Positions 6,269 through 29,488 of a DNA stretch of 64,000 nucleotides are shown here, in pieces. The first letter of the stretch is position 1, and each line of letters begins with the position of its first letter. Source of the stretch: Haliotis rubra (Eukaryota); the NCBI RefSeq assembly GCF_003918875.1, contig NW_025766625.1:1178001-1242000 (forward strand). The letters run 5' to 3'. Below the pieces are notes generated by a model. That model made no database searches. It was not told where the DNA came from and saw nothing but the letters and a program-made list of their open reading frames with translations. The position numbers were made by a program, and so were the translations under genes.

Positions 6269-7301
6269 AGGATCAGTTCATGCATGACGTGTTATTCAAT
6301 TACACTAAGAGTCTCCTGGGCGTGCAGCAGGCCTTACGCAGTGACTGGGTGCTATTTAATGTCACAAAGGAAGTTCTGCAATACCTAAAATATATCGGTG
6401 GAAACTGAGACGACCGCTTGGTTTTGATCCAGGTAATTCTTAAACATGATACCATTTGTCAACTTCATTCCATATCTATCTTACACATGTTGAACGCGGT
6501 TTGTCTTATTCAGTGAAACCTGTTCAAATGTTTTAGGCCCAGACAAATACCACCCCTTCGTATTTTAAATGACGACACATGTCGTGTAGACGGACCCTGT
6601 ACTGACGCTGATGATTTCTTCGTGCGTTTATCTCAATGGGGATGAGTTCGCTGCAACTGTATCTAGTAAAATGTGCGTTAAGGGCAGCCATCTTTATCTC
6701 CTGATTCATGTCACATTGTGCTTGTATTACCAGGATATCAATGGCATTATTAAACCGAATGAGACGTTAGCGGTACATGATTAGCTGTTGTAGTCCATAT
6801 TATCAGCAACAGTGACTCCTTCCTGTTTACTTATTCTTTGAAATACCCAGCTAAAAATAGTGCACGAAACGTGTGTCGCGTGAACTCATCATCCAATCAG
6901 AAACAGGTAAGGAAACTGAGCGTCATTGTTGAGGGCTATCTCGAGGCGAGGCTATGAGGTACAGGCACTGAACAAATCTATGATAACTTGTGTACTGGTG
7001 GATATTTACTAGAGGTGGATAAGAAATGTTTGTGGAACAAATATTGATTGAGGTAATCACTTGAACGCGCATGGCAGTCTCTGTCCTTTACATTGATTTC
7101 TAGTCATGATCGAGAGGGTAACAGTAGTTGTCTATTTATAGGTCCAGCGTGTCAATAGGTAGGTATGTCCATTGCTGTGCAGACATGTGTGACTCATAGA
7201 CCTAGGCCTGCTTCAGTTATCATCCTACATTAACACTTGTCAGAGGGGTACACAAGATACGTGATGTAGACCACTAGCTGTCCGACTTCCATTTGTGTAA
7301 A

Positions 7302-7639: not shown

Positions 7640-7946
7640 CCATTTGTGTAAAAGCAGCGGTGGCTGTCTGCTTGTGATTAAGTGCCTGACTCTGACTTTG
7701 CGTTCGAATTCCGGGTGGGACAAGTTGTAAAATATGTACTTTACTGGGACGGTGTAATGCCAAATACGACATATGTTACATTCGGATAGTAGGAACCAGT
7801 AGATTTAACATCCTTGAACACCTTGTATTTGTGGTAATGGTTGTGCTCGTCCTGTATTTCGTTATCAATTATTTGTGGTTTGTGTTCCAGAAGGCATGGA
7901 ATAAACCCACCAATCGGATTTACGCATTATACTAGATCTCACAGCC

Positions 7947-8666
7947 ATGAGAAAACATCAAAGTGTCGTCTTATTGGTGTACAGCGACAAGTTGTACATC
8001 TACTTTCATCTACTATCATATTCTTATGATGTATTGCTGGAAAATGCAGTCCAGCAAAAGGATTTTGTGTTTCGTTATGCCCATATTTGGGTGTACCCGA
8101 CCATTTCTTTGAGAGGTAATTTTGAAGCTCTCATGACTCGGAATGGAGTACCGCTGGAGTACGTCATGGTTTTGAAGCCCGGAGACTGAAGTCATTCCTT
8201 GGTGTGGACATAGCTGTATCCCGGATCGAGCTTGCAAAGGCTGGGTTCTACGCAACAGGAGATGGTGATGAGACTAGATGCTTCAGCTGTGGCGTGAGGT
8301 ACAAGAACTGGAGACAGGGAGAAAGGCCTGACAATGTTATTCATAAGCATAACTGTCGACATAGCCATGGTTTACATCGAGGAAATGTGCCCTTTACCGA
8401 AGACCCACTACCTTTAAGTACTGACATTACTTCGTCACGCCTGTGGTACCCAACATCGGATTACGATCTCCATGATCCACAACCAGAGATCCATTCACCA
8501 TACCTACCTCCTCGTCCAGGGTCTCTAATTTCCTCAGTTCCCGGAACTGATTACCACACACCCGATTACAACCAAGGATCTGATAGACTCGCATCGTTCA
8601 GAGGGTGGCCAAGGGAGAGGGGACCGACTCCGCGTCAACTTGCTGCAGCTGGTTTTTACTATACAG
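7947..8666 (+). CDS. IAP-2 first coding exon (pre-BIR motif, atypical BIR1, first half of BIR2), with a 1-nt frameshift at the T-run 8170..8173
   Basis: ORFs 7947..8189 and 8204..8707 join into ...VMV(F)EARRLKSFLGVDIAVSRIELAKAGFYATG..., matching paralogs IAP-3 and IAP-5. Donor GT at 8667. Confidence 0.85.
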
Positions 8667-11008: not shown

Positions 11009-12449
11009 GCTGATCAAAGCTCTAGAAAGGTTTTGAAAGCACAAACCAGTATTCTCCTTTTTACTGCTAGTAAACTTTTTTTAAATATTGGTTATTTTTG
11101 AAACTGAAATAACTAATGGACAAATACTTTAAACATTTCAAATACTTAAATTGTTGGTGGTGCATGCTTGTTTATCAGTCATCTTTAACATTTGCTCAGG
11201 AAACGAAAAGACCTCTGACTGACTGAGGGATGACTATATATATATATTCCATGGTATTACATGTCGTTGGGGGTAACTGTCATGAAACCATGTACAATTC
11301 AATGTACCGGTAAGTGAAAATCTATTGCAAGCACCGTTGAATCAAATCACCTCACCCAACCAAGTCTCAAATATTCAAGTTAGTCTGAACACAACCCTTC
11401 AAATTATTGGACTTCTTTTACTCAGAATATCTTCTGTTACTGTTACGTTTTGCTTGGAATTGTCACCAAGCATGATATTCAAAATTAATTCAAATATACA
11501 GACTATGAGACCAAGGGTATCTCTGTCAAGCCCTTGGTGTTCAGGGTCGCCAACGCTATAGTTCAAACCAGCAGATATGATAAATAACATCTTGTTCATT
11601 ATTACAATCTTTAGTTACAGAAGAAGGAGTTAAGTGCAAAGCATCCGAAAATTGGTGTACACGGGGTCAGTTCATTCAGTTTGCAGCAGATAATGTAGAT
11701 TAATCTGAGAACATGGATTAATGCATACCAATGACGTTTTTGCCAATTAGGTGACTGTTTGCCAAAAATGCTGAGGTGTTGATACGCTAAAAGGGATGGG
11801 TTCATATGTCCTGGGTTCATATGTTACGGAGATGCTGAATCAAATTGCTTGATGTCTTGAACAATTCTTGTAGAATATAAAATGAATCACTAGATTGTAT
11901 CATTCTCAGTATTGAGTTATGTTTCATATGAAAGCCAGTTTGGTTGTATTCCATGAAAGCTTTCAAATAAAAAGAGTCAATTTTGAGATTTAAGAGGCTG
12001 ATCTCCCACCACCTAAGCCTAATGTATTACCTAATTTAAGTTCACTTGTCTGCACGGTACTTTGGCGGAAAATAGAGTATGGAAAAAAATGCAAACCATT
12101 TTCATTTTATTTTTCTATTTGAACAACGAAAGTTTTAGACGCATTTTAATGAACTTACATAGTTAAAATAGCACACTTCGCCGAATTGGCAGGGACCTGC
12201 CTTGCCACTGGAAGAGGCCATGCTTAAAGAACTTAAAATCTACAAGTAATATGAATGGTTTAACTACTAACAATTTACTCAGCTTCATTCACGTCTATAC
12301 TGAAAGTTTCTATCTTCATCATAGGAGAGGAATGCTTTTTTGAAGTACCCGTCCCACGACGGATATGCATAAATGGGTTAACCATCGGAACCTTCTACAA
12401 TGTAGTAATGCTCATTCATATTTCTTACGAGTATCTTGGCACATTACAG

Positions 12450-12595
12450 GTTTCCTTGACAAGGTCCGATGCTTCTGCTGTGGAGTTAGGCTGAGGGAAT
12501 GGGATGAAGAAGACGACCCGTGGAGGGAGCATGCTCGCTATAGCCCAAACTGCCGTTTTTTGACAGAAAGATGTCCTACAGATACTACACCACAG
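12450..12595 (+). CDS. IAP-2 exon: second half of BIR2
   Basis: G|FLDKVRCFCCGVRLREWDEEDDPWREHARYSPNC, bounded by AG/GT. Confidence 0.9.
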
Positions 12596-12725
12596 GTAAT
12601 ACTGAGATGCATGTTAAGGAATTACTGAAACCCGAACACCTCTTTTACAAAGCTAGATATGTTGTATAAATATCGAATATTTGTTGAATTATTTTCTTTC
12701 CAATAATATCAAAATCTATGTTTAG

Positions 12726-13245
12726 GTTACTGGATCAGGTTCCAGCGAGATTCATCCTCAAAGAGCAGCTATGAAGCGCAAAAATGAATCCCAGGATAAC
12801 AGACAGTGGAATCGGTGCATACTATGTCTGGATCACCCTGCCAACATAGTATTCCTCCCATGTGGGCATCTGGTAGTTTGTGTCATGTGCAAACAAGTTA
12901 TACAACGTTGCCCAGTTTGCAGCATCCGTATCCGGGGATGTGTTCGCATCTATCCAATGAGTCATCAAAGTTCAAGACACCCGTCCTCGGATCAAAGTTC
13001 AAGACACCCGTCCTCGGATTTCACTCTTCGTGATCCGTCGCCAGAGATCCCTCCGACATCCATAATACCTCCAGATCACCGTCCTACATCTATAATGTCG
13101 TCAGCTTCTAAACCAGAGACTGGAACGAATTACTACGCACCTGATTACCACCTTGAAACTGATAGACTGTCGTCGTTCCAAGGCTGGCCGAGCGAGAGGA
13201 CTCCGACACCGCAGCAACTTGCTATTGCTGGTTTTTACTATACAG
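12726..13245 (+). CDS. IAP-2 exon: internal C3HC4 RING, linker, first half of BIR3
   Basis: CILCLDHPANIVFLPCGHLVVCVMCKQVIQRCPVC runs without a stop into DRLSSFQGWP...LAIAGFYYTG; AG/GT bounded and in phase. Confidence 0.85.
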
Positions 13246-13918
13246 GTACTGTTAAACACGTGTTTAATGTCTTTCACTGTTCAAAATACCAAGCCACAAT
13301 AGTGTACATTTTCAATAGGAAAACTTGTTTTGTAGAATGCTAAGTTCTAAGGATGCGCAAAGAAAGTCTAACAATACTACATGTACAGTGATTTTTTTAG
13401 TATCTGTATAAAAAGTTGCTCGATCGGAATTAATGTCACCTTGAAAGGTATTGGGGTTTCATGAGGATGCATCGTGTTGCTATGGGAGAAACTATGAAAG
13501 TTACACAGATCTTAGGCATTTTCGTGTGACATTTTCAGAAACTTTTCAATATCAAAATGTGATGACATCTATCGTCCAAATGCCATTATAGTGTTTAGTC
13601 TTCTCACTTCTACATTATTACTGTATTACTTATTCTTTATTGGTTTAACTGTAGTGAAAAGTTTAACTTTGTCGAAGAGCTGTGAATCGTAGAAGAGATA
13701 GGATAATCATATTAATGATCTTCAGAAACAAGGCATGACATTAAATATAATTACCAATCAGAAACGCATACAACTCTAAGATGCAACTTATATTGTCTTA
13801 AACGGTGTCCCCATTGTCCCAAAACATGATGAATTAACCATGATAACATTCTACAATGTTGTAATGCTCATTCATATTTGTTCTTAATATCTTGGCACAT
13901 TGACATACCTCCCCGCAG

Positions 13919-14064
13919 GTTTCCTGGACAAGGTCCGATGCTTTTGCTGTGGAGTTAGGCTGAGGAAATTGGATGAAGAAGACGATCCGTGGCGGGAACA
14001 TACTCGCTTTAGCCCAAACTGCCGTTTTTTGGCAGAAAGATCTCCTGCAGATACTACACCACAG
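13919..14064 (+). CDS. IAP-2 exon: second half of BIR3
   Basis: Near-identical paralog of exon 12450..12595. Confidence 0.9.
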
Positions 14065-14190
14065 GTAATACCAACATTCATTCATGTTCATGCAACCCAA
14101 AGAAATCTTTTTCATAAAGCTGTATATGTTATTAAACAGTAAATGTTTGTTGAATACTACTTTTACAAACTCCTCAAAATGTATCTGTAG

Positions 14191-14217
14191 GTTACCGGTT
14201 CAAGTTCCAACGAGATG
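14191..14217 (+). CDS. IAP-2 last exon, 5' part (VTGSSSNEM), interrupted by the LTR element
   Basis: Acceptor at 14190; homologous to the start of exon 12726 (VTGSGSSEI); continues at 23109. Confidence 0.85.
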
Positions 14218-14539
14218 TGTCGTAACTGGCGTTTGGGTGTTAGTAAACCCTACCACCGTTACCTATTAATTATGGTCGTTCCACATTGTTCGGGGAGATG
14301 GTAGCTCTGGCGCTCCACTCGCTTGGTCCGTTGCAGGACGCTAAGTCAAGGAGTGAGGGTTCTGACGACCGTGACTCCTAATTAACCACATAACATTCAT
14401 GTACTGGCACACATACATTCAAAGATAAACGCAACACCAAGTTTATACTCACATAGTTTTTTGAGCAAAACTGCAAATCTAAATACAAATCTGATGTAAT
14501 TCTCTCACGGTTTTGGGGATGCATTTTTACCTTATAACA
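14218..14539 (-). repeat. 3' LTR (322 bp, lacking 420 bp present in the 5' LTR)
   Basis: Matches 22363..22606 joined to 23027..23104, with about 5 substitutions counted by eye. Confidence 0.92.
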
Positions 14540-14548
14540 TCCTCCGCC
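14540..14548 (-). promoter_or_regulatory. Polypurine tract GGCGGAGGA
   Basis: Purine-rich run immediately 5' of the 3' LTR on the - strand. Confidence 0.7.
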
Positions 14549-16580
14549 TGTGGACAAGAGCTGCCCACAGCTCGGATACATTAAACATGAGCACAGGTCC
14601 GATATGTTAAAGTTAAACACATTGAACACCGTCGAAGCAAAACAGGATCGGTAATTTCTGAGAGGAAATGATAACCCATTTCAAACTTTCGGAATATTCG
14701 GAAAAAGTCGAGGATACTGTACCTTAAAAACGAGCATGCCAAGGAATAAGAGAATGATCCTATGTTACTTCGGGTAACCACAAAGCATATACATCATATA
14801 TATTATGAGATGAAAACACAACAATGAATTAAAGTCAATATTAAATGTGAAAATGTCTTCAATATGGCCAAACAATGGCACCACCATTCACAAAAGTTCA
14901 TAAGTCTCTGGTCCCATCGAATAAACTGGCAAACGTCTACTGGAAAAGTCATGTTCTGAATGTCACTTGATATACACTGAACGCTGTTTACTCTGTGCGA
15001 GGCCACAACAAAATTAATGTCTGAACACAGGGCCGTGTATCACACAGCATAGTTAATTGGCTTGGTCTTCAAAGTGAGGAGACGAAATGTTCTGCACACT
15101 GCGTGAGTGAGCTCTGTAGTTTCACTGATGATGTACCCTGTTGCTTTCGCAACTTGTAGGGGGGCATCGTAGAGGTCTTGCAGTGTCTATCGTCAATACT
15201 GCGCCTTCGTGGGCGGTGTTCAGCGTCGCAACCTGGAACTTGCGATAGCGTTCGCCGGTAACAGCAAGTGTGGAGCCAGATAATCGATGTGGCGTGGACC
15301 AGACGACAGCGAGGGAGGAGCTTATCTGTTCTCCCGTCTGAATGGGGTCCGGCCATTAATCTACAACACTTGAAACAAGTGTTAAACCACGGCGAATATA
15401 ATTAGTATTATAATATACATTAGATACGACAGCAATACATGTTAAAACATGACACGCTCAAATAAATGGCAACCTGTGTACAGGTCACAGTAGACAATTA
15501 CAGCATTCTTGACTGCCGACTGCGTGCCGAATAACAATTTGAGTCCATAATGTTGCATGAATATTCTCTGATACCTATGTAGCATGGCATCAATAAATAG
15601 TAATCAAATGTTATTTTAACCATGGACGACATCTGTAATACCTGTAATAGGTTAAATAGGTGCAAGTTACTCACAACATTCAGTAAATGCTTTGCAGTTT
15701 AAAACAACAAGAACGAACAACACCGATAAATAAGGGATGGACTGAAAGTATACATTGAAACACGGATAAGAATATTTCCTAACAAGTAACATTGAAGAGA
15801 ATCCACAGTAGAATTATGTAATATAAATAACTTCCATCTATCCGTAATGTATGAGACATCAATTCCTAATACAGGTATTGTCTCTATAGAAAAGTTATAC
15901 AATATTGTCGTAAGAATGAGTATTAATATATGACTGAACATTCTCTTTGTGACTTTGTAATTATATAGGGGTTAAGAGCACGATGATCTCTACTGTTAAA
16001 ACATTTAACAAAATATTACTATAACTTTAAAACATGGAGTATTTATCGAAAACTATCGCTTTTCCAATTCTTAACCATTGTGTAGACTCAAATGGTCAAT
16101 GTACCCAAATGACAAGTGTTCTAACACTGAAAAATGACTGGTCGTTAAAAGTTTGTTGAACTCCATTATCAAGATTACGTGCTGATTTCGTCCTCTGCAC
16201 AATGCGTTTCCACGGTGACAGTCCACCATAAGATAACGGTTGAATTCGTCATCGACATAAATACACTTTGCTGCGACCGTTATATCTGGCATTTGGCGGA
16301 GAACAAAAGCTTTCTATTGCTAATAGGATAACCGGGGTCTGCCGTCTGATTTAAGGGGACGGTTGTAATGCCATAATGTTATAAAACCATAAAAACACTT
16401 GCTATAGTTGGAAGGAATTGTTTGAATTGAAACGTTTTTCCAGACATATATATATATATATATAGATGGGGTTTGAATTACCAAAATTGGGGCTATCGAA
16501 CAGTAAATAATATGTAAAGAAAACTCGTTGAATACGAAAGTTAGTCAAAAATTTGCAGCTGACAACGTGAGGTCACGGGT

Positions 16581-18704
16581 TCAGAGATAAAATTGTGGCA
16601 GAACAATCTCATGACAAGAATTCGTCAAATGTAAAACTAAGGTCGTAACCGGTCGATTGAACTTTTTTACTCTGCGAAGAAGTAAAATAAACACCAGAAA
16701 TACTGTCGATATGATGAGGAAAACATCCATTGAAATAGTTGATTTAATCAAAGACATAAAAGATGGCTGGGGATAGTTCGGAGGGGTGGTTGTGTGGTAT
16801 GCTTTCCAATCTATCAAACCATTAGTCGGGGAACCTGCTGTAAGTAACGTTAAAGCAAAAAATAGGCGTCTAACTTTTAACCATAAATACATAACCAGTA
16901 TAAATAGAAATAAGGACAAACCTGCGGCAAAACTAGCCGTTAAATGTTAGGGCTTGGTTAAGGACCCATCCAAAGCAGACGATGGAAGGGAATTCATCCA
17001 ATTATCTTCAATTAAATTATCCGAAATCACTTGTGCCTTTTTCATACGCTTGGAAATAAGGCGTAAATCAACTTGAAATTTATTTTCCTTTTTCCGAATG
17101 TCATCGAAAACTTTATAATCGATTAATAAATGTGGAATTTTGAACGCAGAATCTTCTAAAAGAAGCCGTAAAGTTTCGTAAGGTTTCAGTACGGATGAAT
17201 TGAAAAATTCCGATAAGAGTAGAAGATTGGGTGGATACAATTTTGAAGTTGTTGACTTTTTTTCACAGTGATGAATTCTCATGTCTATGTCGAATTCATC
17301 CAGTTTCAACGCACAGTGGCAAGGAATTTTAAATATACAAATCTGACAAGCTGGACGCTTCTCAATGCGACCCTTGCAAGTTAATATAATAGTTTTTATG
17401 CCACTGAGCAAAACAAGGCCTGGTTCGATTTCGAGAGCCATCGAACGAAGCCCTTTTAATCTAAATTTAACATCACACAAGGATTTAATTCCTGGTGCGT
17501 CCTGATCAAGCAGAGCAAGTGCGCAGGTGAGAACCAGTGTTTGGTTTGGCGCTAAGAAAAATTGGGCAATGTTTTTTGTGTTCACCAAAACATGTTTGAA
17601 AATCCCTGGTAGAAAATTCAATATACTGATCTTTCGCTTCCGAAACTGCCAAATAATCAGGTAAATTCATAACCTGAGTGACGTGTGAACTTGATTGATT
17701 AATTGGTAGGCCAAATGAATTGATTCGATATACCTCGAGGAGAGTTGAATGAGTCTGGAAAGGAACAATGAGTGAAATTAAAATTGAATCTCCAGTTCTA
17801 GAACAATGAACAGTGCGTTCCCGATAATAATAGCCTGGATCCTTGTGAGCAACGTGAAACAACGGATATTCTGCGTTTAGACGTTTTTGAATCATATTTA
17901 GGGCCTTCTTTACTTCCGTAACTGGGAGCAAAGATGGACTCAAACGTTGGTTAACTAATTGCTGTATTCCAAGATACATTTCATCAATTTCCTGTCGAAT
18001 AGTCGTCAAAAATGTCAGACGATCTAGCAAAATTTTCATAGAAATGAAAATACTTTTTTCTACGTCTTGTACCTGTTCGGCGACCTGAGAAATGTCCCTA
18101 TGATTCGTTTCAATACCTGTTAGAGAGGAAGAAATACGGTCATTGGTTTTAGCTATAAATGACGACATCTGACGAACTTGCACTTGTACAACGCGAGAAG
18201 TATTAGTTACATGCATTGATAATCGTTTGACATACTGCGCCAGCCGTTCTACATCTTCGACTGTAGCAGTACCAAAAATTGAACGACTAATGGATCCGAT
18301 AAATGGAAGGATTGCCCGTCTCGTGCGTGAATCCTTTTGAAAAGTGTTAACATGCGGAATTAATATTTTAATGTCCTTACTGACATTCGTCCAATACACG
18401 AGCAATTCTTGTTCCGCTTTCTTTATATATCCATCTATAGCATTCACAGAATAACAATGTAACGCGTGCGTTTTACAAAACTGTTGGTAATCTGGTCTAT
18501 TACCCATTTCAGACAAATCTGGCAATTTATACTTGAATACATGGATCCATTTATTTTGTGAAATGTCGATACGTGACGTATGGATAAATACAACTCCCCA
18601 TGGAAGTCGTAATTCTGTATGGACAGAATTAACTTGATTCTGGATGATGACAAGCGCCATCAGCGTGAACAAGACCCAAACTGGTCGAAGGAGACTCCTG
18701 GATT
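16581..18704 (-). pseudogene. env: env: class I viral fusion glycoprotein (gypsy-Env/baculovirus-F-like); frameshift near 17530 and an in-frame TAA at 16947..16949 before the TM segment
   Basis: Signal-peptide-like SRSLLRPVWVLFTLMALVIIQ, furin site RTRR followed by fusion peptide AILPFIGSISRSIFGTAT, heptad repeat, QRLSPSLL motif, Cys-rich region, TM GLSLFLFILVMYLWL and a second TM VFLIISTVFLVFILLL. Confidence 0.85.
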
Positions 18705-19830
18705 CTAAAATTCAAAGAACGGGATTATGAACATAAAATAGAAACTTGAAATGAAATCATATACGTCATCAATATTCTTAGGAAAAGTTTCCATCACTGT
18801 AAAACTGCATTCATATGACGTCTTCTCCTGTCAATTGAAACTGACTGTATTAAACATATGATAACAATTGTCACATGCAGGTAATGGTAGTTTCACACTA
18901 GTATTCGTGCGAATAAACAACATTCAACAATAGTAGTAAATTCTCATCAACCTGTTTCATCAGAAGATTTCTCACCACGGAACATATATGTATTGGTACG
19001 GTATAACCATTGAACACTGAATTCTCTTGACTTCCTTTCGAGTCATGTAACTGTAATTCATTGTTCGTCATCGTATTTCATTGAATACCATTGTATTTGT
19101 ATATATATCGTATCATCATCGTCAGATCTCTTTGGATCGTAGTTCATTTCTTTTTCTCGTATATACACGCATAGCGAAACGCTTTGTAATGGTCCGCGAA
19201 TATGTACAACGTCCCTTTTGGACAGCGCGACCTGTAACCTTCCCGTAGAAGTAGTATGAATATGCATAACCTGACCCAAACATTTTGGTCAGTAACCCGG
19301 GAATGTATTCTTCAAGTAGTAATACGAAATGTGACCCAAACCTTTGCAGCGTTTGGTCACTAACCCGTGAATATGAATATATTTTTCAATATCAACCAAC
19401 ACGTGACTGTATGCAGTTGAAGTATTCTGAATATATTCAACAAGACATTTGACAAGAAACAATACACAGTTCAACATATATGCACACTTCTATTTCCTTG
19501 TAACCTGGTGACAATTGCATCATGTAACATCGTAAAGGATGATCTATAGCGTGGGCTAGCACCATGCGTATAGCATCATATAGTGATAATCCTGAAATAA
19601 AACACATGCAAAAATCAATTTGTGGGTGATCAGTCCTCAGCATGATATTTGCAGTGTCGTAACTAAAAAGGTAACGCTTTATAACAATTTGTCAGAAACA
19701 ATATTTCAAATATTTTGTTAAAAATTCTAACGCTTTCGTTTCTCATTTAACGACTGCAGTATCATATAATCATAGGTCTCCTTCAGGGATTTTGGATTCG
19801 TGATTATCTGTAACCACATGTAAAGTGCAG

Positions 19831-21063
19831 TTACCTCATGTAAAGTGCAGTTCTCCTAGTAAATCCTGTAGTATTTCTTTCCACTGAGTATTCTACGCTC
19901 GCATCCATTTTGCTATACAAAGTATTCCTGTATATCCAAGGTGACTTTTTATGCCTGTCCGATGTTAACGGCTTGGAAATGGGGGTTATGATGTCTGTAT
20001 CCGTACCAGATTTATGCAATTTATTAATTTGATTGTAATGACCGACAACTGGAAATGGGTTAGTTGGCCTGTGTCTGTGGTTGACAAACCGCCTAAGCCG
20101 TTTAGCATGACCAGGAACTTTCAGTCGTTTACGATTGTCATAACGTGGTCGTTTGCACGTACACGGTGGCAATTGATTGGACGCGTCATATTGTCTGTGT
20201 GATGTGGAGTAATCTCCTGTCGGGACAGCGGTTACTCTAAGTGAGCTGTCATCATACAAATCTGATGACAAATCTGTTGTGATTGGAATCGATATTTGGT
20301 TGTTGTTATCCGACTGGGGAAGACCACTGTCTGAATTCGGTGAACATTCTGAATACGGAAAGCTTGACAGAATCTCTGTGGGATGCCAGTGTTTGCCCGG
20401 TCGATACTGAACTGTAAAACCTAGGCAGTGTTCCTTTTTTGATGGGGGAGCAATTGTGACATTTTGCCGCGAGCAAGCAGGAATGTGTTCTGACTCCGTG
20501 GGGATTGATTGTTTACCAGCAACAGGTGGTAATAAAGTACCATTCGCCCTCATTGGAACAACTGTTGAACCATTCTGAATAGCCAAAGTATAAGATTGAA
20601 AATTCATGACAGTCTTTTGACTTATCAAGAAATCTAATCCTAAAATCATGGGAGACTCAAAATTTGCAACAACTAGAAAACATTGTTCTGTTTGAAAATC
20701 ACCAATAGTGATGGAAAGTACAACTTGTCCTAATACTGGCATTATATTTTGACTTATCCCTTGAATAGATGGCACATCTGACTTTTCAATAGGGATTTTT
20801 TTCCATAGGCCTGAATCATTGAAAACTTCTAGGCTTAAAACACTAGAACCAGCGCCTGAATCTACAATTGTTGGAACTAACTTTTCTCCCAAAACAACAT
20901 GAATTGTATTAAGCCTGTTGTCGCTTTCAAATGTAGTCTGCGAAAAGTTAGATTTTGGCTGGTTGTAACGAGGAGAATTACAAGCTTGTGGTTTCAAATA
21001 AGTATGGTCAACCGTTTGTTCAGCACAATGGGAAAATTTCCTGCGTGGTCTTGACTGTAATTG
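19831..21063 (-). CDS. pro: Retropepsin (aspartic protease) ORF in frame with gag; remnant pol with RNase H and integrase C-terminal stubs only
   Basis: IVDSGAGSSVL active site and ILGLDFL motif, FTVQYRPGK (RNase H end), VPGHAKRLRRF (integrase C-terminus). No YxDD or DDE core. Confidence 0.85.
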   Translation of the reverse strand, partial: QLQSRPRRKFSHCAEQTVDHTYLKPQACNSPRYNQPKSNFSQTTFESDNRLNTIHVVLGEKLVPTIVDSGAGSSVLSLEVFNDSGLWKKIPIEKSDVPSIQGISQNIMPVLGQVVLSITIGDFQTEQCFLVVANFESPMILGLDFLISQKTVMNFQSYTLAIQNGSTVVPMRANGTLLPPVAGKQSIPTESEHIPACSRQNVTIAPPSKKEHCLGFTVQYRPGKHWHPTEILSSFPYSECSPNSDSGLPQSDNNNQISIPITTDLSSDLYDDSSLRVTAVPTGDYSTSHRQYDASNQLPPCTCKRPRYDNRKRLKVPGHAKRLRRFVNHRHRPTNPFPVVGHYNQINKLHKSGTDTDIITPISKPLTSDRHKKSPWIYRNTLYSKMDASVEYSVERNTTGFTRRTALYMR

Positions 21064-22185
21064 CTATCTGCTAGTTCGGTAACCTGACTGGTACCTAGCC
21101 CTGCATACTCGTTGAAAATGTCCTATCTTGTGACAAAAATGGCTCTGAATATTCCGTGCGGGACAAAAATCAGAATGAGAAAAATCGTACTCACCACCGC
21201 ATCTGTAACACTGCCTTCCACGGGCCATGTTGTCTCCTTGAATGGGGTCTGTCCATTGAGGAGTGGGCTGCCACGGTTGATCTGTATACCTGGATTGTCT
21301 GGGGAACTGGGGACGTTGATTCTGTCGGGACTCATAAGTATTGATCTGTGACGATACCGGAGCGAGTTTTGCCGAAAGTTCAACAATCTGTAATCTCAGC
21401 GTATCTATTGCTAGCATAACGTTTGTACTGTCTTCAGACTGGGGAATGACCGATCTAGCCAGTCGCGCAAATGAAACTGCCTCGTTTAGCACATTTGGTT
21501 GTTTCATTAACACATGTCGCCTGGTATTGTCATCCAGTCCCCTAACGAAGGCGTCCATTACATCTGCATCTGTTTTTCCTAACAGGCTAGCCGTCTCAGT
21601 CAAGTCCGCCAAATAAGTATCTATAGATTCTGTAGAGGATAGCTTTCGACTGACAAAAGTTTCCAAAAGGGCCCAACGGTCAGTAGGATGGACATACTTG
21701 TCCTTGAACAATTTCTCAATCTCATCAAAACGGACTATTTCTTCCTCTGCCGATTCTATCAAATCTTTGTACCATAGATACGCCGCGTCCTTTAAAAACA
21801 GTGGGAAAACTTCAATTTTCTGTGCATCAGTCCACCTTTTAAAGTTATCAAAATGAGCAAAACGGTCAAGCCACTCGGCAGAATGAAACGTGTCCCTACC
21901 TGTGAAATGTTCTGGCATTAAAGTGGAATCGCCCATATTGAAGTCAGGTGCAGAATAAGAACTATTGGTAGATGACAAATCTAAAGAGGAAAATGAGAAT
22001 TCTAAATCCTCCTGAGAAAGAGATAGGGAGAGGTCATTGGGAGCAGATGGAGGTTGAGACGTTGACGTGGGTTGTTGTATTATGCCAAGTCGGGTTGGAT
22101 TAGTAAAAATGTTAGAAGTGATGGGACGAGATTGGACCAGACTGTCATAGGACGTAGATGAATCTGAATCATTTCCACGAGGCAT
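21064..22185 (-). CDS. gag: Gag (retrotransposon capsid domain plus Zn knuckles)
   Basis: PEHFTG...WLDRF...FPLFLKDAAYLWY capsid motif, FVRGL, and CYRCG..H...C plus a degenerate SHFCHKIGHFQRVC knuckle. Confidence 0.92.
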   Translation of the reverse strand: MPRGNDSDSSTSYDSLVQSRPITSNIFTNPTRLGIIQQPTSTSQPPSAPNDLSLSLSQEDLEFSFSSLDLSSTNSSYSAPDFNMGDSTLMPEHFTGRDTFHSAEWLDRFAHFDNFKRWTDAQKIEVFPLFLKDAAYLWYKDLIESAEEEIVRFDEIEKLFKDKYVHPTDRWALLETFVSRKLSSTESIDTYLADLTETASLLGKTDADVMDAFVRGLDDNTRRHVLMKQPNVLNEAVSFARLARSVIPQSEDSTNVMLAIDTLRLQIVELSAKLAPVSSQINTYESRQNQRPQFPRQSRYTDQPWQPTPQWTDPIQGDNMARGRQCYRCGGEYDFSHSDFCPARNIQSHFCHKIGHFQRVCRARYQSGYRTSR

Positions 22186-22346
22186 TACAAAAATTCAAAA
22201 TATCCTGAGGGAAAACTGCAGATAACATATCCCAGCCGCGAAAAGGGAACCTACCGTCAAACGTCAATGCAAGGGAACAAAAGGGTAGGAACGACCATAA
22301 GGAAAACAGCGAAATGGATCGTCTTAAACATTTTGTTCAAGAAGAA

Positions 22347-22362
22347 CCCGCAGACTCCACCA
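22347..22362 (-). promoter_or_regulatory. Primer binding site TGGTGGAGTCTGCGGG (tRNA-Ala-like)
   Basis: Starts with TGG directly after the 5' LTR and resembles the complement of the eukaryotic tRNA-Ala 3' end. Confidence 0.7.
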
Positions 22363-23104
22363 TGTCGTAACTGGCGTTTGGGTGTTAGTAAACCCTACCA
22401 CCGTTACCTATTAATTATGGTCGTTTCACATTGTTCGGGGAGATGGTAGCTCTGGCGCTCCACTCGCTTGGTCCGTTGCAGGACGCTAAGTCAAGGAGTG
22501 AGGGTTCTGACGACCGTGACTCCTAATTAACCACATAACATTCATGTACTGGCACACATACATTCAAAGATAAACGCAACCCCAAGTTTACACTCACATA
22601 GTTTTTACTCAGTCTCAGTCCATCTCTCTAACTACAACTTCAACATCAGACAAGGCAGGTTCGTACCACACGGGGCAACTGAGTGGCGTGAACTGGCTTC
22701 CGTCACTAAAAAGCGCGCACCACTCGCTCAGTGCCCAACCTGTCTTTTTATATGGTTCGAGCCTGGCCTGATCTTGATCACATGTTTGAACTAATCATTT
22801 TGATTCGGTTAGCCTGTATCCGACCTTGCACTCATGAATATTACGATTGGAAAAGTACCGGTAAGAATCGTTCGGTTACTCATCCCTTTGTTGTTTGTTT
22901 CAATGTAAGATTAATCTGTTATGTCTTTCAACAGAATGTGTTCTGTCTCTCTTTCCATAGCCTACGGCTAAACGCCATTCTATGGAAACTTTCCGTCTCC
23001 ATACCGTGCCTAACCGTTATGACTCATGAGCAAAACTGCAAATCTAAATACGAATCTGATGTAATTCTCTCACGGTTTGGGGGATGCATTTTTACCTTAT
23101 AACA
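22363..23104 (-). repeat. 5' LTR (742 bp) with TATAAAAA at 22752..22745
   Basis: TGTTATAAG...TTACGACA on the - strand, homologous to the 3' LTR. Confidence 0.92.
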
Positions 23105-23105
23105 G

Positions 23106-23351
23106 ATGCAACCTCAAAGAGCAACTACGAAACGCGACGAAGAAATCCATGGCAGAAGAGAGTCCAGATTGTGTAAGATCTGTCTGGAGGACCCCGCCAA
23201 CATCGTCTTCCTCCCCTGTGGACACCTGGTTGCCTGTGCCTTGTGTGCCCCAGCTCTGGAGCGTTGTCCAATCTGCAGAAAACACATCCAGGGAACTGCC
23301 CGTGCCTGTAAAGCCGATATGGCGTCTCGACAGAAACGTACTAACTGTTAA
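23106..23351 (+). CDS. IAP-2 last exon, 3' part: C-terminal C3HC4 RING separated by the LTR insertion
   Basis: CKICLEDPANIVFLPCGHLVACALCAPALERCPIC; joins 14191..14217 in frame when the element and one TSD are removed. Confidence 0.9.
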   Translation: MQPQRATTKRDEEIHGRRESRLCKICLEDPANIVFLPCGHLVACALCAPALERCPICRKHIQGTARACKADMASRQKRTNC

Positions 23352-23789
23352 TAACTGACACTGTAACTGAGAGTCCTCATGTCATAGAGCATAAATAACA
23401 TTCGAATCTTGCTTTTTGTCAAAATTAAGATGACAAAATATGCCATCGTAGCCGTAGGAATTATTTCAGATATCGTTATTAACAGTGCCCAACCTCCACA
23501 AACAAACGTGTTTTTACAGCGAGAAGCAACCTCTTTCCATTTCTATTCTTAAATCTGGTCCAATAAGTTTTAGACTCGACGAGAGAAGGGCTTGAGAATT
23601 GTTAAAATAACGAAAATATGTCACAATGAATAACGCGACATATATCGATGTTTTAGAAAGGGCGGCAACTTCACAAGTTACACTCTAGGATTCGATACTG
23701 AAGTGATAGAAGACAATCAGTTAAATGACAACGCTTTTTAATTCACATTGTTGTTATAATTGCAAAACAATTCTACACACTGAATGGTA

Positions 23790-27730: not shown

Positions 27731-28026
27731 GTAAGGTTGTGTGTTTAGTTCTCACGCCACCTCAACACGTCGGCCTGTAGTTACTGGGTTCTGACTATCA
27801 CACACGCAAAACAAATGGCGACATCGTTATGGTAGGGTCTACAGCAGGTATTGAAACAATTCTGCCAATTCTGCCCCACCCCCACCCCACCCCCACCACA
27901 CACACACTCACTCCTGGATTTACAATATTTCTGGTTTTACATTGACTTCAGGACAGATTATACTGTCTGCATAAACCTTCACATACATACATTTACCAAA
28001 TTAATTTTCTCTTGCAGGAAACAACG

Positions 28027-29488
28027 ATGAGGATAAAAAGTCATACACTTATGTATATTTATATCCGATGCCTTTATGTAATACCACCAAAAAGCAAATA
28101 TGTTTTTGAGTTGAAGTATGGAAATATTATCACCAAAAAAGTCGGTGGTGGACACTTGCCCGACATTGTTGTTAATATCACCTGTTTTGATAAGCTCTCA
28201 AGTTATTTTACAAAATCACATAAAAATATGGCGTTTCCGATGTTTTATATGCCGGAGCTAAGAGCGTTCCAGCACATTAGTATCGTGGTATATACAAACC
28301 CATCGATATCACTAAATGGGAATTTTGAAGCTCTGGTTGCTAGACGTGGCGCCACCCTGCAGGAAATCATGGTTTATGAAGCTCTTAGATTGAAATCCTT
28401 CCTTGGAGTAGACACAGCAACTGTATCCACTATACATCTGGCGGCAGCAGGGTTCTATGCAACAGAGCGTTCAGGAGAGATCAGGTGCTTCAGCTGTGGC
28501 ATCCGCCAAAGGATAGGACCACAGGCCCCAGAACGTCACCAAACTGATTGTCGACACAGAAATGGGTTACCTTGTGGAAATATCACCTTTGCTGATTGTC
28601 CCTTGGCTTCTGAGTGGAATATTATTCGAAACCTTCCCAGATACCCGACCACAGATATCGATCTTCATCAACCACAGATGCGACCAACCGCAAGGCAACT
28701 ACCTGGAAACGTCGCTAACAATGCATATGAACCCCGTCAGGCTAACCACGCAGTGCCTGATTACCCTATAGAAGCTAGTCCGGCAGCGCTCGGAGTAAGG
28801 TTGAGAGAGGGACGCCAGGCTCCGCAAAAGACCCCTGGAGAAGATCCTAAACGAGAAGGTACAGTTTGTACGTGGTCGTTATAATCCGATGTAAGACTTA
28901 TTTTATGTGAATGTGTTGGATAAACATTTTTTTCGAGTCTTTTTCGAGCGAAAATGAACAAAACATAAGAAATATATGTGGCGATATTTTGGAGGTAAAA
29001 CACAACTGTGACACCTTTAATAATAATGTGTGAATCCACCCTGTTGCAGGCTCCCCCGGCTTCGTTGGGCCCCGCGAGTTGGATGAAGATCAAGGCAGAT
29101 TGTTTAGAGATATTAACAGGGGATATAATTTCCCCGTCGGCGACAGATCTGGCACTTTCACCTCCTTACAGGTAACATGAATTTAGCTGAATGAAATCGT
29201 ACTGATTGTAACACATTCACATGAGACGTTTGGGTATAAAGCTAACTATACTATTTTTCTGGAAATTGTATTTTGCAGGTGACGCAGCTGGGTAACACCC
29301 CAGAGGCTTTCGGCAATGCTTTTAGTGGACATGGACTGGAACACCCGCAGTTTATGGAATCGAGCTTGTGCAGGATCTGTCGGGAGAACCCCCGCAGTAT
29401 CCACTTCCACCCCTGCGGTCATCTAGTGGCCGGTACCTTCAGAACACCTTCAGAACGTTGCCCAGTTTGCAGGCAACATTTGGCATAA
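28027..29488 (+). CDS. IAP-3: divergent IAP (atypical BIR1, degenerate BIR2, degenerate RING). Exons 28027..28858, 29050..29171, 29279..29488
   Basis: RLKSF...LAAAGFYATE...CFSC; same exon phases as IAP-2; RING CRIC...PCGHLVAGTFRTPSERCPVC lacks one Cys pair. Confidence 0.8.

Follow-up and report, generated by a model that had tools for sequence, protein, structure and literature searches.

An antisense Ty3/gypsy element in the last exon of an abalone IAP gene and the candidate splice acceptor at its border

The window (the whole stretch of Haliotis rubra DNA that we analysed, 64,000 nucleotides) contains an IAP gene of a tandem cluster whose last exon is interrupted, 27 nt from its start, by a Ty3/gypsy element with env-like frames and without pol that is inserted antisense to the gene. 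A first, sequence-only reading had proposed that the right border of the element supplies a splice acceptor at 23105 through which the element could be removed from the mRNA. The acceptor signal is weak and is common to the element family, so the insertion most likely shortens or disables one copy of the gene; that is, it is probably an ordinary, disruptive insertion through which a single IAP paralogue has one truncated allele, with 23105 serving at most as a minor cryptic acceptor. The CAG at 23105 is a by-product of the element family and occurs no more often than chance predicts for this LTR family.

In the mechanism that we propose, the short native intron of the insertion allele would still be spliced at 14190; the transcript would then enter the antisense LTR, meet the stop at 14302, and either terminate at one of the element's poly(A) signals or be degraded. 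The main product would lack the terminal RING (RING2), and the CAG at 23105 would be unused or used in fewer than about 10% of transcripts; trace use of 23106 is compatible with this mechanism.

The interrupted IAP gene

The host gene is encoded on the plus strand by six exons and has the domain order BIR-BIR-RING-BIR-RING (Pfam families PF00653 and PF13920). It is identified as an IAP by its BIR domains and C3HC4 RINGs (PF00653, PF13920); its homologues are abalone IAPs, and one of these, P0019, labelled Haliotis rubra, is 100% identical to exon 4. The gene belongs to a tandem cluster of IAP paralogues on a single contig; gastropods are reported to carry 22 to 89 IAPs each (PMC13159474).

Exon 1 presumably ends at 6432. 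Exon 2 (7891-8666) encodes BIR1 and the start of BIR2 (PF00653) and is spanned, from 7886 to 8666, by an RNA-like contig (record 25 of run X8); exon 3 (12450-12595), to which P0019 maps exactly, encodes the end of BIR2; exon 4 (12726-13245) encodes RING1 and the start of BIR3 (PF13920, PF00653), and X8 records 26 and 27 stop at its edges; and exon 5 (13919-14064) encodes the end of BIR3 and terminates in a phase-0 donor, 14064^14065 (score 7.2 in our local splice model, in which it was a training site). The native intron that follows is 126 nt in length (14065-14190), and its acceptor at 14190 is intact (score 0.9; this site was held out of training). In the sequence, the first 27 nt of the last exon, that is, nine codons (14191-14217), end in the left copy of the target site duplication (TSD; 14214-14217); the remainder (23106-23351) supplies 81 codons, an intact RING2, and the stop, with 23106-23348 encoding 81 aa that include a C3HC4 RING (PF13920, E 2.4e-16). 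In the orthologues P0002 and P0003, nine linker residues separate the RING region from the last BIR exon, which is the spacing that an uninterrupted exon would give here. In the assembly (G000), the RING2 exon is present at full identity at one locus; a second, empty copy of the insertion site was not found in G000, where the RING2 exon and the exon 5/intron segment each identify one locus and the other matches are paralogues.

In P0019, donor 14064 is linked to 28018, in the next paralogue, and the acceptors at 14190 and 23105 both go unused; as an automated model in which two paralogues are fused, P0019 is poor evidence. The fusion of the host IAP to the paralogue at 28018-29485 across the element is probably a mis-annotation. 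The gene also has the following features: the segments 12350-12760 and 13800-14217 (BIR-end exon, intron, and start of the RING exon) are internally duplicated with 78% DNA identity; a perfect 27-nt tandem duplication occurs at 12964-13019, in exon 4 between RING1 and BIR3; and the domain order varies among orthologues, with three BIRs and one RING in P0003 and two BIRs and two RINGs in P0002.

We compared the window with contigs from four sequencing runs (X1, X3, X5, and X8); X5 and X8 are termed RNA-like, a label that the tool assigns as a guess, and X1 may be the source of the window, so it is not independent of it. Pieces of X8 end at 7886, 8666, 12724, and 13242, that is, at exon edges or within a few shared letters of them; from this we infer that the IAP gene is spliced in organism B. 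X8 record 27 continues for 175 letters past 13242, about 26 letters more than exon 5 would account for. In X5, the match of record 24 starts at 23104 and is preceded by 107 letters; a contig is predicted to start at 23104 for the uninterrupted allele, at 23102 for the 14064^23106 splice, and at 23106 for a splice from a donor in the LTR, so this contig fits the uninterrupted allele in a related organism and says nothing about carriers of the insertion. Among the joints listed (15 of 424, all from repeats, that is, SINE and LTR pile-ups), none concerns 14064, 14190, 14217, or 23105. A search for a protein sequence spanning 14064^23106 gave 18 matches among longer proteins and 3 among proteins of similar length, none of them from the last exon.

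An X1 contig covers 12492-14246 without difference from the window and extends 29 letters into the LTR, just short of the tool's 31-letter bar for bridging; its depth is 75.5 vs 153.4 for the contig at 7800-8478, a difference that hints, weakly, at heterozygosity for the insertion. The summed X1 depth at 12579-14171 is 81-95, approximately half of that at 7800-8330 (169) and at 23199-23700 (151); a second haplotype that is without this unit, or in which it is far diverged, may account for the difference.

The inserted element

The element occupies 14218-23104 on the minus strand, antisense to the IAP gene and within its last exon, and is flanked by a 4-bp TSD, GATG, at 14214-14217 (left) and 23105-23108 (right); the right copy provides both the G of the candidate AG and the duplicated ATG. 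The 5' LTR (22363-23104, minus strand) is 742 nt in length with TG...CA ends. The 3' LTR (14218-14539, minus strand) is 322 nt in length and is without 420 nt of the other LTR; read on the gene strand, it contains a stop at 14302-14304 and a weak in-frame GT at 14239. By reading, no microhomology is evident at the break that accounts for the missing 420 nt. The two LTRs differ at 5 of 322 columns (1.6%); using two borrowed rates quoted in PMC12130899, neither of which is from abalone, this divergence gives an insertion age of 0.6 to 3 million years.

With two direct LTRs, TG...CA ends, and a short TSD, the element has the structure of a Ty3/gypsy retrotransposon. The interior (14540-22362, minus strand) contains gag (21064-22194), an aspartyl protease frame (19831-21063), and env-like frames (within 16581-18711). 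The gag and the aspartyl protease are Ty3-type, with matches above the cut-offs (PF03732, PF19259, PF13650); it is the gag that carries the assignment to the Ty3/gypsy superfamily. Reverse transcriptase (RT), RNase H, and integrase were not found by Pfam in 25 of the 26 minus-strand interior ORFs of at least 55 aa (one 55-aa ORF was left out), and none of 20 further minus-strand ORFs matched Pfam. This copy is, then, non-autonomous, as the order PR-RT-RH-IN expected of pol is not present; without detectable RT, RNase H, or integrase, it cannot be placed on an RT tree. The env-like sequence is split over three minus-strand ORFs (16581-18711), the first of which resembles baculovirus-F/gypsy env (Atlas features, 0.97); this resemblance is in language-model features, with recognition below the tool's threshold and no Pfam match, and is a lead only.

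The LTR family has at least 45 scored matches in G000, and the 4-bp TSDs agree in 11 of the 12 family copies that have both flanks. Other members of the family are differently arranged: a joint from 14735 to 22082, seen in both DNA runs (X1 and X3), leaves out 7,346 nt of interior sequence, pointing to internally deleted members elsewhere; two LTR copies (L011 and L017) are closely spaced and flanked on either side by interior sequence, which suggests a tandem or nested arrangement; and solo LTRs (L028:2237-3163 and L029:2236-3162, a duplicated locus, and L005:2237-2410) adjoin a DDE_Tnp_4 transposase frame and an RT fragment.

The candidate acceptor and competing readings

The sequence features described in the sequence-only reading are present. 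The right LTR ends at 23104 in CA, the G of the TSD follows at 23105, and the ATG begins at 23106, so that a CAG is formed at 23103-23105; the claimed stretch of about 70 nt free of other AGs is in fact 73 nt, as the previous AG is located at 23029-23030, and the candidate region (23031-23105, plus strand; identified from sequence and the local splice model) includes a branch-like motif 33 nt upstream. The pyrimidine tract is also there, with 12 pyrimidines in 20 positions, the median of true sites. Because donor 14064 is in phase 0, as claimed, the 14064^23106 splice is in frame and would join BIR3 to RING2; eight linker residues would be lost because the TSD duplicates the M codon, and these residues are located outside the Pfam BIR and RING matches. 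Reading through from the native acceptor at 14190 likewise gives the product that had been described, with 28 LTR-coded residues and a TAG starting at 14302. We consider this product, which is without RING2, likelier than the one from the 14064^23106 route, although the latter is possible on paper and has a precedent (PMC11249258). The description of the insertion as a "new intron" needs to be replaced: 14064^23106 is an alternative 3' splice site that bypasses the native acceptor and enlarges an intron already present, from 126 nt to 9,041 nt; a true new intron requires a donor in the left LTR, so the label fails.

The strengths of the sites were compared with a small position model of 17 acceptors, taken from four annotated proteins of the IAP cluster and the site at 7890, so the scores are rough; a larger training set from myosin genes was dropped because its exon edges could not be fixed without reference proteins. 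(A sigma-70 promoter scan was also disregarded, the bacterial model being inapplicable to an animal.) In leave-one-out scoring, the true acceptors range from -4.5 to 9.7 with a median of 5.1 (n = 17); the candidate at 23105 scores -1.1, above 2 and below 15 of these 17 sites. It ranks 53rd among the 428 AGs in 14191-23105, nine others of which score at least as high and also have an AG-free zone of at least 40 nt; an AG-free zone of at least 70 nt is found for only 14 of the 428. The native acceptor at 14190 is itself weak; at 0.9, it exceeds the candidate by just 2 points. Read on the gene strand, the element contains 15 poly(A) hexamers (8 AATAAA and 7 ATTAAA), the first at 14580. RNA folding around both acceptors did not differ from that of shuffled sequences (z = -0.81 and 0.76).

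We then asked how often the family would make such a site by chance, using 30 of the 45 LTR matches in G000 (L013 was dropped because it overlaps L011). Of the 21 host-facing LTR ends with this polarity, 8 have G as the next letter (8 of 20 when one duplicate locus is removed; 7 of 19 when the IAP copy is left out as well), and 27 of 29 LTR ends have an AG-free zone of at least 71 nt. In the target 4-mers, the first letter is G in 9 of 26 and the last letter is C in 7 of 26; thus, there is no acceptor bias beyond a symmetric target preference, and selection for targets that begin with G was rejected. With a one-in-three chance of the correct frame, an in-frame CAG is expected in roughly one of eight antisense coding insertions. 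The CAG at 23105 exists because every LTR ends in CA and G is often the first letter of the targets into which this family inserts.

The reading of a disruptive insertion is favored by a native acceptor that is intact and only 126 nt from its donor, by the low score and rank of the candidate, by the family-wide occurrence of the signal, by the poly(A) hexamers, by the start of X5 record 24, and by the low level of wild-type mRNA in the Yaoer case described below (PMC11249258); counted against it are a RING2 that has stayed intact despite an LTR divergence of 1.6%, and a native acceptor that is weak (0.9) next to a candidate with a typical pyrimidine count, a long AG-free zone and a branch-like motif at -33. 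These last features are also the ones that would be expected if donor 14064 often skipped the native acceptor and joined 23106, with the allele producing both RING2-plus and RING2-minus proteins. Such a useful route would be in frame, the residues lost are outside the Pfam BIR and RING matches, and partial splicing of an LTR element together with a host intron has precedent (PMC11249258); however, the score is weak, many better decoys are present in the 9 kb, poly(A) hexamers occur from 14580 on, and the signal is a trait of the family, so we judge this route unlikely. We give about the same low weight to the insertion allele being already dead, that is, to the one-base frameshift in a T run of exon 2 (near 8167-8171, plus strand; orthologue alignments break at 8171-8177) being real on this haplotype, with a stop in exon 2 and degradation of the mRNA; if so, the splice question would be without effect on protein. 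The frameshift is present in the window, and P0019 starts downstream of the break; the location of that start past the frameshift makes P0019 weak evidence either way. In the contigs across 7993-8381, however, X1, X3, and X5 are one letter longer than the window and X8 is 22 letters longer; the extra letter, at its deduced place, would keep the frame open across the T run, the point of the break in the orthologue alignments. The frameshift near 8170 thus seems to be absent from all four runs and is either an assembly error or private to the window haplotype; loss of one base within a T run is a typical assembly error. The X1 contig over this spot differs from the window by five letters and may represent the other haplotype, so the window's own haplotype is not cleared; X3 and X8 are without these five differences. 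The sequence-only reading had itself offered a gene silenced by the frameshift as grounds for abandoning its proposal; the extra letter in the contigs weakens this objection but does not remove it.

A true new intron, in which the native intron is spliced and the GT at 14239 then joins 23106 (14238^23106) with the addition of eight codons in frame, appears very unlikely. In its favor, an intervening exon of 48 nt would stay in frame and end ahead of the stop, and 22 of the 27 other LTR copies also carry this GT, which is located 21 nt into the left LTR; its score as a donor, however, is -6.1, the three in-frame candidate donors before the stop in the left LTR range from -4.6 to -13.2, all below the 15 local donors, and an introner survey gives 0 families for Haliotis rubra (PMC12130899). 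Equally hard to credit is the broader idea that this gypsy family is pre-fitted to escape from genes, in that an antisense GT located 21 nt into one LTR, used with the CA+G acceptor at the other end, would leave a net 24 nt; if it were true, splicing could remove, in frame, any coding insertion whose target starts with G, as about a third of targets do, and the IAP allele would switch its terminal E3 RING on and off, a molluscan LTR introner with a domain-switching effect on an immune gene. Finally, the duplicated ATG had been suggested as the start of a stand-alone 81-aa RING, which would require an antisense promoter in the 5' LTR. The ATG and the intact RING frame are present, and this part of the suggestion stands; the start context is poor (C at both -3 and +4), an out-of-frame ATG is located 22 nt upstream at 23084 with more ATGs before it, the promoter is putative, and the 81-aa protein is absent from the protein collection, so we regard this product as extremely improbable. 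A disruptive insertion remains our preferred reading.

Significance and comparison with known systems

If the acceptor is used, a 9-kb retroelement would be buffered by a splice site made at its own insertion, toggling a ubiquitin-ligase domain in an immune/apoptosis gene of a farmed mollusc. Chance alone is expected to yield a CAG at an LTR end, and RNA evidence is required for such a site to carry weight; for other genes, the mechanism has already been published. The locus also illustrates the fast turnover of expanded molluscan IAP clusters. By title, none of the papers found in our literature searches is on this locus; the single match on retrotransposons and splicing in abalone IAPs concerns oysters.

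Fridell, Pret, and Searles reportedly described in 1990 the retrotransposon 412 in Drosophila vermilion, an antisense LTR element in an exon that is spliced from the pre-mRNA; 412 is said to use splice sites near both of its own ends. The abalone route differs from this classic antisense case, as reported, in that the donor is a host site and the host acceptor is skipped.

The element can also be compared with introners, that is, elements present in many copies that are annotated and spliced as introns, the donor and the acceptor both being located at the element ends; LTR elements are described as accounting for about 12% of classified introners, in which a splice site is co-opted from the TSD (PMC12130899, PMC11282704). 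The abalone element is like introners in that its candidate splice site is co-opted from the TSD and unlike them in being at one locus and in having no strong donor. As an introner, it would require a donor and an acceptor near its two ends; such a pair is not present, as the acceptor is weak (-1.1) and the in-frame donors in the left LTR score below all 15 local donors. We also scanned 23 of the 42 open frames that touch LTR copies, excluding the host IAP locus and frames that enter the element interior and missing exons shorter than 45 codons; three of the 23 match Pfam, all of them to transposon domains. No other family copy in a host coding exon was found among these 23 frames, so the many copies that characterize introners were not seen.

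Env-carrying Ty3/gypsy elements are reported to occur in metazoans, including molluscs (PMC13524379). The errantivirus-like Ty3/gypsy elements described there share with the abalone element TG...CA LTRs, a Ty3-type gag, a protease, and, as a lead only, an ORF that resembles F-type env; the abalone element differs from them in having no detectable RT, RNase H, or integrase (PMC13524379).

A mirror image of the candidate splice is provided by Yaoer, an LTR retrotransposon in SfCHS2 of Spodoptera frugiperda, in which the G of the TSD and the first T of the LTR create a donor (PMC11249258). As described, Yaoer can leave with the host intron, restoring the exact wild-type mRNA at 0.08 of the normal level (RT-PCR, Iso-Seq); the alternative product is truncated by a stop in the LTR after 12 LTR-coded residues (PMC11249258). 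In both systems, a TSD base and a terminal base of the LTR create a splice dinucleotide, the element may leave with the adjacent host intron, and a competing native site retains the element to give a truncated protein, with 12 LTR-coded residues in Yaoer and 28 in abalone (PMC11249258). The two differ in that Yaoer creates a donor whose use has been demonstrated, whereas the abalone element creates an acceptor, a candidate from sequence only, whose use would cost eight codons (PMC11249258).
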